Positions 40,544 to 45,104 of a stretch of 64,000 nt of DNA are shown in pieces. The translations under genes were made by a program, and so were the position numbers. The notes below the pieces were generated by a model. The model did no database searches and was not told the origin of the DNA. It saw nothing but the letters and a program-made list of their open reading frames with translations. The DNA is from Escherichia phage ES19. Position 1 is the first letter of the stretch. Each line of letters opens with the position of its first letter. The stretch is taken from the sequence record MN508616.2; one strand, written 5' to 3'.

Positions 40544-41074
<531 letters not shown>

Positions 41075-41530
41075 TTAAAAGAGGCTGTTCATTATTCGGT
41101 AAAGTGAAGGACCCATCACATATTGCCACTGAGTACGAGGAATAAGAGCAAAAGCATCCATCTCTGGAATCATAACGCCATCTTTATTTTCAAAATAAGA
41201 CTCGCAATGGCAATTTCTAAACATCTCATGCTCTACTGGAATCGTATAATAAAATAACTGTAAGTCTTTATTACTAGAATATTTAAATACACCTAAGTCT
41301 TCTAGAAGGTCTGGATTATAATCGATAAAACCAGTCTCTTCTGAGCATTCTCTTTTTGCAGCTTCCAGTGCATTCAAATCAGAACTTTCTACACGCCCCT
41401 TTGGAATATCCCAGCGATGTGCAATCATTCCAGGTTTACGAGAACCGGTAACTCGTCCCATAAATAAATCTTTATCTTCTGTCATAAAGATAATACCAGC
41501 TGATAATGTTTTCATTTTAATTTCCTGCAT
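41075..41530 (-). CDS. nudE: Nudix hydrolase NudE
   Basis: 151-aa ORF with Nudix box GRVESSDLNALEAAKRECSEETGF. Confidence 0.8.
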   Translation of the reverse strand: MQEIKMKTLSAGIIFMTEDKDLFMGRVTGSRKPGMIAHRWDIPKGRVESSDLNALEAAKRECSEETGFIDYNPDLLEDLGVFKYSSNKDLQLFYYTIPVEHEMFRNCHCESYFENKDGVMIPEMDAFALIPRTQWQYVMGPSLYRIMNSLF

Positions 41531-42000
41531 TCAGTGATAAAATTATTTAATTTTTGAGCATATTTCTTTTCATCAAAAATCTTTTGTTGTCTGCGTAAAC
41601 GCCATGGCATTTCAATGAACATACGCCATATTCCTGATAATACTGCTGCTGTAAAAATATTAACAAGTATAGTTAAAAGAACCCAATCTCCTATTCTGTC
41701 CATTGGATTTTTTATAAAAAAGTAAAATACGAACGATGATATAGGAAGACTAATGATATACCACAGAAGAACCTTCTTATCTGTGAACCAATCAGCATTC
41801 GTTAACTTAGCGCGACCGTTTTGAATACATACGAACTTATCATCTGTTACAGTAAATGGCTTAGCTGCTTGATATCCCATTCTAAACTCCCTAATCAACA
41901 AATTTTTCATATCTTCGGAACAACCATTCCAGTCAACTCTATCAACTGAAATGCCATCATCCCCATCATCTAAATCATACCAGCGAGTTTTTAAAATCAT
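41512..42000 (-). CDS. hypothetical membrane protein, tandem paralog 1
   Basis: 162-aa ORF; two helices then basic tail ending FITECRKLK. Confidence 0.45.
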   Translation of the reverse strand: MILKTRWYDLDDGDDGISVDRVDWNGCSEDMKNLLIREFRMGYQAAKPFTVTDDKFVCIQNGRAKLTNADWFTDKKVLLWYIISLPISSFVFYFFIKNPMDRIGDWVLLTILVNIFTAAVLSGIWRMFIEMPWRLRRQQKIFDEKKYAQKLNNFITECRKLK

Positions 42001-42359
42001 TTAATTTTCCTACAATCACTCACAAACTCTTTCATTGACTCATTTTCAATATAAGACATGTAGCTATTATATTCTTTTAATTGTATTTTGTAATCTTTTT
42101 TTCTTTGCCAATTTATTTTAAAATTATCATAATGAAAATATAAAATGATACCAAAGAATGAAAACAATGAAATAATTTTAGTATAACAAAGCTCACTCCA
42201 AACTTCTGTTATATTTACTGTGCCGTCGATGTTTAAAATAAGACAGTCAATTAACAATCCAAAAAGACTACCTGCAAGAGCTGCAGCCAACGCCACAGCA
42301 AAAATTAAAAATGACTCAGAAAACGAATATTTGACTTTATTTAGTTTTGGCTTTTGCAT
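41997..42359 (-). CDS. hypothetical membrane protein, tandem paralog 2
   Basis: 120-aa ORF; two helices then tail ending FVSDCRKIK. Confidence 0.45.
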   Translation of the reverse strand: MQKPKLNKVKYSFSESFLIFAVALAAALAGSLFGLLIDCLILNIDGTVNITEVWSELCYTKIISLFSFFGIILYFHYDNFKINWQRKKDYKIQLKEYNSYMSYIENESMKEFVSDCRKIK

Positions 42360-42754
42360 CGTGATTCCTTAACAAATTTCATAATTTCATCAAATTCATA
42401 CGCAGCAAGTTTAAGCTGATGTTCCTTTTTAATCTTTTTACACTGTGCTTTCCAATCACGTACGCGTTTACGATAATGCCTTCCTTGATACCAGTATCCT
42501 ACCCAATTTACGGGTACTAATAAAAGTGGAACTATTAATGGAAGAATTAGCATTAACACAAGTATTTCGCCAGAATCAATATCAGTCATAACATCTAAAA
42601 CACCTCCAATAATCAATAGAATTACAAATGATATGAGTATAACAGGACCTATTAACACATCAGTAGAAATTATCTGACGCTTTAATTCATACTTCAACGG
42701 TTTACTTGGAAGGTATAGTGATGGCTTTGACATATTCTCTACATTCCTTAACAA
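42341..42754 (-). CDS. hypothetical membrane protein, tandem paralog 3
   Basis: 137-aa ORF; two helices then tail ending FVKESRCKSQN. Confidence 0.45.
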   Translation of the reverse strand: MLRNVENMSKPSLYLPSKPLKYELKRQIISTDVLIGPVILISFVILLIIGGVLDVMTDIDSGEILVLMLILPLIVPLLLVPVNWVGYWYQGRHYRKRVRDWKAQCKKIKKEHQLKLAAYEFDEIMKFVKESRCKSQN

Positions 42755-43310
42755 ATTTTTCTAGTAATAAATCACTTTCAAAATTGGGATTTTCTACAAA
42801 TTTATCAAAAAGATCATCAACAATAGTTAAGATATTCTTTTTACTAAGAATACGTTTATTTTCATGCTTCGTTTCAGAATCAACTATAAGAGTAAAGAAA
42901 TATTTCTTGCCCTGAAATTTTACAGTAGTATCAATATAAAATAAATTTGACTTTTGTAAATTACGTTTAAACCATGCGTCACTTAAACTATAAACACCGA
43001 GATAATCAAAATCGTCGTTTAAATAACAAACCGTCCATTCAGGAGAAATGAAATCAGTAAATTCAACATCAAAATCACACGTCAATGAATGAATTGATTC
43101 AATACTGTTAATGAGTATTCCAGGACGTATTAAAGACTTTTTACCTCTAGAAAATCTTCCGGAAAGGCTTTCATCAGTTTCATATGAAGACCCCCAATAG
43201 TAATTACGTCCTTCTGCCATGCGTTTAAGAGCATTTAGTAATTGGTCTGGAACATCAACCTGTCTTTGAAACTCTTCAAACATTGAATTGAAATCACTTT
43301 GCATTTTCAT
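42702..43310 (-). CDS. hypothetical protein
   Basis: 202-aa ORF; start may be slightly downstream to reduce overlap. Confidence 0.4.
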   Translation of the reverse strand: MKMQSDFNSMFEEFQRQVDVPDQLLNALKRMAEGRNYYWGSSYETDESLSGRFSRGKKSLIRPGILINSIESIHSLTCDFDVEFTDFISPEWTVCYLNDDFDYLGVYSLSDAWFKRNLQKSNLFYIDTTVKFQGKKYFFTLIVDSETKHENKRILSKKNILTIVDDLFDKFVENPNFESDLLLEKFVKECREYVKAITIPSK

Positions 43311-43330
43311 TCCTATTTACTCCAAGTAAT

Positions 43331-43347
43331 AGGGGCCCGAAGCCCCT
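43331..43347 (-). other. intercistronic RNA hairpin with UUCG tetraloop
   Basis: Minus-strand AGGGGC-UUCG-GGCCCCT between two ORFs. Confidence 0.45.
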
Positions 43348-43352
43348 TATCA

Positions 43353-43946
43353 TTATTTCAGAGAATTAATATATTCCTGAACATCGGCAGAGGTAGTTTC
43401 AACCCCAGAAATATTACCATTAAAGGTTTCAACTCGAGCAAGAGTATCTTCAATATCAACCTTAGTCAGTGCTGCAATTTCAACTACATCATCAGCAGTA
43501 CTAATTCCAAGGGCATTCGCTGCACGAGTTTCACGGATATATTCCAATTTAACCGCAAGTTCTTGACGAGCATCATCTAACTCAACTACTTTCTTGGCGA
43601 TTTCAATTCGCATTTCAGCATAACCGTCAGCCTTAGTAGTCAACTGCTCAGCTGTTCGACGATATAGTAAACCGAGTTTAGCATGCATTGTTACATCTTG
43701 GCCTTCGGAAAGAAGTTTACGAATTTCACGCTCTTTTGATTCGGCCTGTCGATTCTTTTCGATAACAAGTTCACGAATACGTTTTTCTTCGTTAATAGAT
43801 TTAACAGAAGCAGTTTTTAGATCTTTAATTTTATCAAGTAGTTTTGCTGCTGCAGCAGTATACTGTTCTTCGACAGATAGATTTTTAGCCATAGCAGAAC
43901 CAAGTTTAGTGCGAATAAACTCAACAATTTTCTTCAGTGTGTTCAT
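43353..43946 (-). CDS. hypothetical coiled-coil protein (PspA/IM30-like architecture possible)
   Basis: 197-aa almost entirely helical, heptad-rich ORF; the similarity to PspA is only architectural. Confidence 0.4.
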
Positions 43947-44047
43947 AGTATTTCCTTAGGTTAATTGAGATTTAAAATCCGTAGGAGTATAATACTCTAT
44001 CGTCAAATTATAGGCTCATAATATCTCAATCATGAGCCTGCGTAAAC

Positions 44048-44540: not shown

Positions 44541-45104
44541 TTATTTACCTAGTTTACTTATTATAGCTTCTGCAGCAGCTTTTAGCTTAGATGCAGTGTT
44601 AATACGATTTTTAATTTCAGTATACGCATCGCCAAGAACATCAAGGCTATCAGAATAAACACTTACACTATTGCGTTCGCTATTTGAAATAGAACCTTTA
44701 GTTTTGCGGTCAAAATCGGTGTACACGTCTTGAAGATCGCGGGCTGCCTTCTTTGCATCATCCAATGCATCAAGAGCTTTATTCAAAGCATTAACGTATT
44801 TTTTAGTGTCGAACATATTCTTAGAAATTTTAACAGGTGCGCGTTCAGGAGTAGCTAACACAGATTTAGGAACCTGAGCGCCAGATGCCAATTTCTTAGA
44901 AATTTTGAAAAATGCTTTATTGAATTTATTTTCTTGACTCATTGTAAAAGAACTATTATCGATGTTGTACATTTCAATAGCTTTAGCTTTCCACTTAAGA
45001 AAATCGCCGCGGTCTTTTGGGTCCAATTGGAAGAATACTTTAGTAAGATCTGCTTCAGATGGTAATTTTGCTGCTTCGGTTAAAAATTCGGCATAGGTTT
45101 TCAT
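44541..45104 (-). CDS. internal protein candidate (IPIII-like) with capsid-targeting sequence
   Basis: N terminus MKTYAEFLTEA matches the T-even capsid-targeting sequence with an LxE prohead-protease site; basic, Ala/Lys-rich body. Confidence 0.6.
   Translation of the reverse strand: MKTYAEFLTEAAKLPSEADLTKVFFQLDPKDRGDFLKWKAKAIEMYNIDNSSFTMSQENKFNKAFFKISKKLASGAQVPKSVLATPERAPVKISKNMFDTKKYVNALNKALDALDDAKKAARDLQDVYTDFDRKTKGSISNSERNSVSVYSDSLDVLGDAYTEIKNRINTASKLKAAAEAIISKLGK

Follow-up and report, generated by a model that had tools for sequence, protein, structure and literature searches.

Early genes e.2, e.3 and e.4 of a T4-like phage: predicted two-helix membrane proteins and a C-terminal signature overlapping the ribosome-binding site of the next gene

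On the minus strand of Escherichia phage ES19, three consecutive short open reading frames (ORFs) encode proteins with similar C-terminal ends, and it may be asked whether these are copies of one gene, why their ends are alike and what they do. The stretch of DNA analyzed, referred to in the following as the window, comprises 64,000 nucleotides (nt) of sequence record MN508616.2. A sequence-only reading of the window had described three tandem paralogous membrane proteins, translationally coupled by stop/start overlaps and regarded as candidates for superinfection exclusion, lysis timing or membrane-targeted counter-defence. Most of this description is upheld in the present study, in which the three ORFs are identified as orthologues of e.2, e.3 and e.4, accessory early genes of T4 that had been catalogued before. 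As a whole, the following description is probable: e.2 to e.4 are known early genes for two-helix proteins, which share with the product of the neighbouring gene e.5 a C-terminal signature that is selected and dual-coded. Only this signature, found across protein families, and its overlap with the ribosome-binding site (RBS) of the next gene go beyond the routine.

Identity, gene limits and predicted topology

The window is DNA of a T4-like phage of the genus Tequatrovirus. Around the cluster, 2.4 kb show 100% identity to Escherichia phages ES21 and YUEEL01 and match 513 T4-like (Tequatrovirus) records at at least 80% identity, and the neighbouring ORFs correspond to T4 lysozyme e, endonuclease V (denV) and the Nudix hydrolase nudE. 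At the equivalent positions the T4 reference lists e.2, e.3, e.4, e.5 and e.6, each labelled hypothetical protein, for which GenBank record L13089 (1993) had used the names msp7, msp6, msp5, msp4 and msp3, respectively. Gene order and overlaps of e.2, e.3 and e.4 are shared between T4 and the window, relatives are 93-100% identical (93% between e.3 of the window and T4 e.3), and PHROG profiles are matched over their full length, namely phrog_2203 by e.2 (expectation value E 1.6e-77, residues 1-160), phrog_2330 by e.3 (E 1e-58, residues 1-118), phrog_2604 by e.4 (E 4.4e-71, residues 1-130) and phrog_2607 by e.5 (E 5e-110). A difference lies in e.2, which is intact in the window with 162 amino acids (aa), whereas in T4 the gene is disrupted by a -1 frameshift and annotated with 102 aa.

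The Pfam set used to scan the window proteins was without the models Phage_T4_Y06M, Y06O and Y06P, and these families were assigned through the precomputed hits of homologues: PF26896 (Phage_T4_Y06M) is found on 51 of 51 e.2 homologues, which are 83-98% identical to the window protein, and PF26873 (Phage_T4_Y06O) on 98 of 98 e.4 homologues, while the Pfam name for e.5 is PF26876 Phage_T4_Y06P. With the e.4 profile, four loci only were retrieved from IMG/VR. Among the GenBank records matching window positions 41000-43950, product names have spread that are implausible for these ORFs, such as sulfurtransferase (e.3, e.4), DNA primase (e.2, e.3), serine decarboxylase (e.4), site-specific RNA endonuclease (e.5) and host specificity protein (e.6).

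All three ORFs exist as had been reported, and the lengths of 162 and 120 aa given for e.2 and e.3 are right, but the third protein, e.4, has 130 aa and not 137. Its ORF (42341-42754) reaches 137 aa only with a TTG start, which falls within TTT-GTT codons of the preceding gene e.5; in T4 and phage U115 the annotated start is the ATG at 42733, and 98 of 98 homologues begin MSKP.

Two hydrophobic segments are present in each of the three proteins (19-residue Kyte-Doolittle means 1.8-3.0). Lysine and arginine residues together number 10, 10 and 15 in the C-terminal tails of e.2, e.3 and e.4 and 2, 0 and 0 in the loops, with four to five in the N-terminal tails of e.3 and e.4; hydropathy and charge counts thus support the two helices and the basic tail that had been described for each protein. 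Because of this distribution of charge (positive-inside rule), both ends are placed in the cytoplasm. On these grounds e.2 is divided into a cytoplasmic N-domain (residues 1-76), a first transmembrane segment (TM1, 77-96), a loop (97-105), a second segment (TM2, 106-129) and a basic tail (130-162); e.3 into N-tail (1-15), TM1 (16-42), loop (43-58), TM2 (59-77) and basic tail (78-120); and e.4 into N-tail (1-26), TM1 (27-47), an acidic loop (48-56), TM2 (57-79) and basic tail (80-130). The predicted periplasmic loops comprise 9-16 residues. Each protein is, by this prediction, a small inner-membrane hairpin of two helices with its ends in the cytoplasm.

Overlaps of start and stop had been noticed between neighbours and were found at each junction, with 4 nt (ATGA) at e.3/e.2, 19 nt at e.4/e.3, 32 nt at e.5/e.4 and, provided that nudE starts at 41515, 4 nt (ATGA) at e.2/nudE. 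This start of nudE was chosen because a Shine-Dalgarno (SD) sequence, AGGAAA, stands 5 nt upstream and U115 annotates the same start. With the gene limits so predicted, the early genes e.5, e.4, e.3, e.2 and nudE overlap one after another in a chain. For T4, the e.2-e.5 RNAs were assigned to the early class and each of the four proteins was detected, e.4 and e.5 in the early, e.2 in the middle and e.3 in the late period (PMC9697503 supplements 4 and 6). The earlier placing of small membrane proteins in a T-even accessory region was right, and the proteins are real and expressed.

The signature and the start of the next gene

The shared C-terminal motif is present as had been quoted and is non-random, and a fourth copy had been missed: it forms the end (…EKFVKECREYVKAITIPSK) of e.5, a protein without transmembrane segment. 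The signature can be written as hydrophobic-x-x-F-[IV]-x-[ED]-[CS]-R-[KN]. When all six reading frames of the complete 166,790-bp genome of the identical phage ES21 were scanned, F[IV]x[ED][CS]R occurred five times, four of the occurrences being the C-termini of e.5, e.4, e.3 and e.2 (Table 1), and at most 20 residues from a C-terminus it was confined to the four consecutive genes e.2-e.5.

Conservation of these residues reaches far beyond the window. F154, I155, C158 and R159 of e.2 are invariant in three genera and in all distant family members. Mosigvirus versions read QFIMECREY in e.5, EFVKEIRCK in e.4 and NFIKECRK in e.3, the last being kept despite an overall identity of 37%, and distant relatives of e.2 (25-35% identity) keep the signature as well, those of Gaprivervirus (SFIEECRK) and Kanagawavirus (SFIKGCRNGRN) being 25-33% identical. 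A search with the e.2 profile against 1.84 billion representatives gave only 15 proteins at E <= 0.001, and the full-length e.2 relatives read from it all end xFI[KTE][EGM]CR[KN]; a 2100-aa match (P0197) was discarded as an artefact of repeats containing WFTDKELT.

Two further proteins end similarly. One is an RB69 ORF133c-like protein of Mosigvirus (L032:3008-3313) with 101 aa, two predicted transmembrane segments and the end LENFIKECRGK, the next ATG lying 1 nt past its stop. It resembles e.2-e.4 in its two transmembrane segments and its signature tail and differs from them in being limited to Mosigvirus (150 records, absent from the genome of the window); its alignment with e.2, e.3 and e.4 is weak, covers helix 2 and tail and reaches E 0.02-0.15 in a very small database. 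The other, encoded on a Kanagawavirus-like contig (L017:87-386), has 99 aa, lacks a transmembrane segment and ends AFIKQCRRNQNVS / ELDAFIKQCRRNQNVS, the end overlapping the start of the next gene. In most copies of the signature a hydrophobic residue stands three positions before the phenylalanine, resulting in a pattern i, i+3, i+4, i+7 (hydrophobic, F, I/V, C), a spacing which would fit an amphipathic helix.

Within its codons the signature also carries the RBS of the next gene, 5-10 nt separating the SD sequence from an ATG that overlaps the stop codon or the final codons. It is formed by the codon pair AGG-AAA (R-K) in e.3 and e.2, by AAG-GAA (K-E) in e.5, e.4 and Mosigvirus e.3, by GAG-GAA (E-E) in Gaprivervirus e.2 and by AAA-GGA (K-G) in Kanagawavirus e.2. 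Since the SD sequence lies in signature codons, the ending RK[IL]K-stop is largely the translation of AGGAAA-WTWAA-ATGA, that is of SD sequence, spacer and next start. Synonymous divergence (pS) falls from 0.173 in the body of e.5 to 0.041 at its C-terminus and is 0 across the final 15 codons of e.4. The arginine is nonetheless written AGG, AGA, CGT, CGA or CGC, the cysteine TGT or TGC and the isoleucine ATT, ATC or ATA, while F, I/V, C and R persist, and the signature accompanies the upstream protein family irrespective of the gene that follows. Because the residues persist through these codon changes and through shifts of the SD sequence between codon pairs, the peptide itself is under selection. 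On comparative evidence of this kind, the signature is selected as a peptide and at the same time dual-coded with the SD sequence of the next cistron. Overlapping coupled cistrons of the ATGA type in T4 and other phages likewise combine a stop/start overlap with an SD sequence inside the upstream coding sequence, but here the codons that bear the RBS encode a peptide conserved across families and genera.

In the DNA itself, the e.4/e.3 and e.5/e.4 junctions share a perfect direct repeat of 16 nt, AAATTTGTTAAGGAAT; when the 2.4-kb region was simulated 2000 times with a first-order Markov model, 9 simulations contained an exact repeat of at least 16 nt. The junction sequence AAAUUUGUUAAGGAA was also considered as an operator of RegA, for which selection of RNA ligands in vitro (SELEX) gave the consensus aaAAUUGUUAUGUAA (PMC3014915), and was rejected, with 11 matches in the window at up to three mismatches and 12.7 expected by chance. 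A scan for sigma-70 promoters gave 26 sites, not above the 21.3 expected by chance.

Table 1. Coordinates of genes, signature copies and junction repeats in the window, with the basis of each assignment or its relation to the next start.
Feature	Position	Strand	Details
e.2 (Y06M)	41512..42000	-	162 aa; ORF list, hydropathy, phrog_2203
e.3 (Y06N)	41997..42359	-	120 aa; ORF list, phrog_2330, T4 annotation
e.4 (Y06O)	42341..42733	-	130 aa from ATG; ORF list, T4/U115 annotation, phrog_2604
e.5 (Y06P)	42702..43310	-	202 aa, soluble, without transmembrane segment; ORF list, hydropathy, phrog_2607
e.2 signature F154-I-T-E-C-R159, then K-L-K, stop	41524..41541	-	AGGAAA (R-K codons) is the SD sequence for nudE, ATG 41515
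e.3 signature F112-V-S-D-C-R117, then K-I-K, stop	42009..42026	-	AGGAAA is the SD sequence for e.2, ATGA overlap
e.4 signature F120-V-K-E-S-R125	42359..42376	-	AAGGAA (K-E codons) is the SD sequence for e.3, whose ATG sits in the R-C codons
e.5 signature F186-V-K-E-C-R191	42738..42755	-	AAGGAA and AGAGAA ahead of e.4 ATG 42733
16-nt perfect direct repeat, copy 1	42364..42379	-	e.4/e.3 junction; repeat search
16-nt perfect direct repeat, copy 2	42743..42758	-	e.5/e.4 junction; repeat search
nudE (Nudix hydrolase), downstream gene	41075..41515	-	probable start overlaps e.2 stop (ATGA)

Three features flank the cluster. Between e.6 and e.5 lies a GC-rich hairpin (GGGGC…GCCCC, 43329-43350), a putative stem-loop in L13089; placed before the overlapping chain from e.5 to nudE, it may act in termination or in RNA stability. 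Immediately upstream of the lysozyme gene e, two TATAAATA boxes (41039-41075) resemble late promoters; taken together with the early e.2-e.5 cluster, they would make lysozyme the first late-controlled gene past the overlapping chain. On the minus strand at 44541-45104, where T4 has e.7 instead, an ORF of 187 aa starts MKTYAEFLTEA, which we take to resemble the N-terminal capsid-targeting sequence of T4 internal proteins.

Common descent and competing functions

The three proteins had been called tandem paralogues, a label that is supported in part only. Architecture and termini are indeed shared, but BLASTP, hhalign and hidden Markov models (HMMs) compared with shuffles gave no significant similarity of the protein bodies, so that formal alignment, which the sequence-only reading had itself named as the decisive comparison, essentially returned no significant pairwise similarity outside the ends. 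Pairwise BLASTP aligned only the last 14-37 residues (E 0.012, 0.085 and 0.068, as single comparisons), and hhalign between the family alignments gave probabilities of 1-9% on very shallow alignments (effective number of sequences ~1.2). The cross-family HMMs included the most divergent available orthologues and were judged against a null of 300 local-composition shuffles. The e.3 HMM scored 7.9-8.6 bits on e.4, equalled by 6-20 of the 300 shuffles, and the e.4 HMM on e.3 remained inside the null, equalled by 21-83 of 300. The sole clean result was that of the e.2 HMM on Mosigvirus e.3 (8.9 bits, 0 of 300 shuffles as good), a score probably driven by the C-terminus; the related PHROG match covers the last 15 residues only. 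Against phrog_2604, the profile of e.4, e.3 gave a full-length match (E 1.1e-3), the score of which may be inflated by transmembrane composition. The N-termini of e.4 and e.3 are alike (MSKPSLY and MQKPKL, M-x-K-P-x-L), and all three proteins have two transmembrane helices, both ends inside and a basic tail, e.2 alone having the additional 76-residue N-domain. We infer that a C-terminal module is common to the three proteins, with an N-terminal start cassette common to e.3 and e.4 in addition, and that they are not full-length copies of each other.

Natural variants show how this arrangement can change. In T4, e.2 (L001:2153-2461) has lost 1 nt from a run of A near codon 96 and carries a +1 insertion ~70 nt farther downstream, and an unannotated remnant of 53 codons retains tail and signature. 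Phages UFV05/UFV11 (vB_EcoM-UFV11 L027:1414-1734, P0143) carry a viable in-frame chimera of e.4 residues 1-31 with the hairpin and tail of e.2, in which e.3 is wholly deleted and the join lies at a TCCTGT microhomology where TM1 begins in both genes. Truncated variants of e.3 and e.2 also occur among the homologues. On the Mosigvirus contig L032, e.5-e.4-e.3 lie ~3 kb from e.2-nudE, and because of this separation the layout of three genes in tandem is considered specific to Tequatrovirus.

That serial duplication of one hairpin gene gave e.4, e.3 and e.2, after which the bodies diverged and the termini were frozen by constraints of overlap and RBS, is doubtful, full-length duplication being most plausible for e.3 and e.4. 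The common architecture and topology speak for it, the extra N-domain of e.2 and the occurrence of the motif on the non-membrane proteins e.5 and the 99-aa protein of the Kanagawavirus-like contig against it. The full-length match of e.3 to the e.4 profile counts in its favour, subject to the possible inflation by transmembrane composition, but beyond the termini BLASTP and hhalign were not significant and most cross-family HMM scores were reached by local shuffles. Further support comes from the junctions, since the identical 16-mer occurs at e.5/e.4 and e.4/e.3 together with the common M-x-K-P-x-L start, and 15 of 18 nt are identical between the e.3/e.2 and e.2/nudE junctions; also from the weak alignment of the ORF133c-like protein with all three over helix 2 and tail, and from the e.4::e.2 chimera, which is joined at an equivalent position, the start of TM1. 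The ~3 kb between e.2 and e.3 in Mosigvirus, in turn, weigh against duplication. The readings considered from here on are not all mutually exclusive, with each other or with this one.

Selection acts unevenly along the proteins. Among eleven Tequatrovirus sequences (nine for e.2), the ratio of nonsynonymous to synonymous substitution rates (dN/dS) is 0.09-0.15 in the C-terminal tails, 0.37-0.75 in the segments TM1-loop-TM2 and 0.06 in the body of e.5; in sliding windows it is 0.00-0.08 in the juxtamembrane tails and ~1.2 in e.4 codons 51-70. Column entropy over 37-88 homologues amounts to 0.13-0.15 bits in the tails and to 0.99 bits in the e.4 loop, where 0 of 9 columns are invariant. Because selection is concentrated on the tails, e.2-e.4 are regarded as functional in nature, with the constrained part facing the cytoplasm. 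Discrete allelic types, comprising the periplasmic loop and the adjacent helix, were seen at e.4 codons 51-66 (42536-42583; DVMTDIDSGE, DVMTANKFGV and EHNKNASREI, with a local ratio of nonsynonymous to synonymous divergence, pN/pS, of ~1.2) and in the e.3 loop (42194-42230; DGTVN and RSNVSGIID).

A role as superinfection-exclusion, envelope-directed or counter-defence factors, with the variable TM1-loop as the active part, is considered unlikely. The e.4 loop is the most variable segment (its entropy, its lack of invariant columns and its pN/pS agree) and the e.3 loop occurs in discrete alleles, but loops of 9-16 residues are short and purifying selection acts most strongly on the cytoplasmic tails. 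The superinfection immunity protein of T4, Imm, is likewise a small, early, inner-membrane protein; e.2-e.4 differ from it in having long, conserved, signature-bearing cytoplasmic tails and show no detectable sequence or profile similarity to it. No exclusion, holin or defence family was matched in Pfam, PHROG, NCBIfam or PADLOC: similarity to the exclusion proteins T4 Imm and Sp and to holin or antiholin families was absent from Pfam (E up to 1) and PHROGs (E up to 10), and what Pfam, NCBIfam and PADLOC returned was noise below threshold (DUF4282, DUF7176, Bfi1, 13-16 bits). Dispensability of the genes in the laboratory would suit such a role, CRISPRi-ART knock-down of T4 e.2-e.5 being scored "Not Fit", that is without fitness effect (PMC11879866 supplement 15). 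In T4 transposon sequencing, however, no e.x gene was among the described top hits against the defence systems RexAB, RnlAB, CBASS and DarTG1/2 or in minimal medium, T4 e.2 being broken.

For lysis timing, the comparison is with holin T and antiholin RI, small membrane proteins like e.2-e.4, whose cluster lies just upstream of nudE and lysozyme e. The two differ from e.2-e.4 in that the RNAs of e.2-e.5 are early and no holin or antiholin family is matched. RI uses a periplasmic domain, and e.2-e.4 have no such domain. The early RNAs, the loops of 9-16 residues and the selection on cytoplasmic tails are some evidence against lysis timing and against a role facing the periplasm.

Very unlikely is the explanation that the junction sequences are recombination linkers for modular gain, loss and shuffling of T-even accessory ORFs. 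The 16-nt perfect repeat stands at equivalent places in two junctions, the signature borders different genes in different genera, the gene content between e.3 and e.2 varies by genus and natural deletion chimeras do occur; yet the one chimera examined recombined at the TCCTGT microhomology inside the TM1 coding sequence and not at a junction cassette, and a role of the DNA only leaves conservation at the peptide level unexplained. Least probable of all is that the signature is a by-product, without peptide role, of an RNA-level cassette for translation initiation (SD sequence, spacer, overlapping ATG), for although RK[IL]K-stop and KE translate AGGAAA-WTWAA-ATGA and AAGGAA, synonymous change is suppressed at the overlaps and the motif always stands directly before an overlapping start, F, I/V, C and R survive synonymous and even two-step codon changes (AGG to CGT/CGA/CGC) as the SD sequence relocates, the F-[IV]-x-x-C part lies upstream of any SD requirement, the motif tracks the upstream family whatever gene comes next, and other overlapping genes of the genome are without it.

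A possible role of the shared tail

A peptide conserved at the end of cytoplasmic tails, on proteins with two predicted helices, raises the question of what it might contact. The hairpins may chiefly be membrane anchors for the conserved cytoplasmic tail, the terminal helix of which would dock a common partner on the cytoplasmic side of the inner membrane in the early phase of infection. Alternatively, the tail helix could mediate association among e.2-e.4 themselves, possibly recruiting e.5. In either case the function would presumably be accessory and dependent on host or condition. This idea of a docking helix is put forward tentatively, as a possibility suggested by the sequence comparisons.

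Several points weigh against it. The idea draws only on the pattern of conservation, and the signature is loose, with serine for cysteine in e.4 and aspartate for glutamate in e.3. AlphaFold2 models were too poor for use, with a predicted local distance difference test (pLDDT) value of 49 for e.2 from an alignment of 14 sequences and of 40 for e.5 from a single sequence; searches of PDB sequences with e.2 and e.5 gave no matches. Diversifying selection on a function facing the periplasm could be an alternative reason for the near-neutral state of the transmembrane and loop region in e.4. Finally, e.2 occurs in Gaprivervirus and Kanagawavirus without e.3, e.4 or e.5 nearby, which makes an obligate hetero-complex unlikely.

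A broader form of the docking idea would treat the signature as an unrecognised module of Tevenvirinae early proteins, carried by the hairpins e.2, e.3, e.4 and the ORF133c-like protein as well as by the soluble e.5. With this module, proteins anchored in different ways would bind a single target of host or phage on the cytoplasmic side of the inner membrane, and the peptide and the RBS of the next gene would have evolved together within shared nucleotides; in this extended form the idea is unlikely. If true, such a docking module would be a new mechanism of host takeover or exclusion. The signature alone reveals no new mechanism and is a clear, small example of dual coding. The genes that carry it are conserved in more than 500 T4-like genomes, expressed early and under purifying selection, and the constrained tail with its signature offers a concrete handle for experiments.

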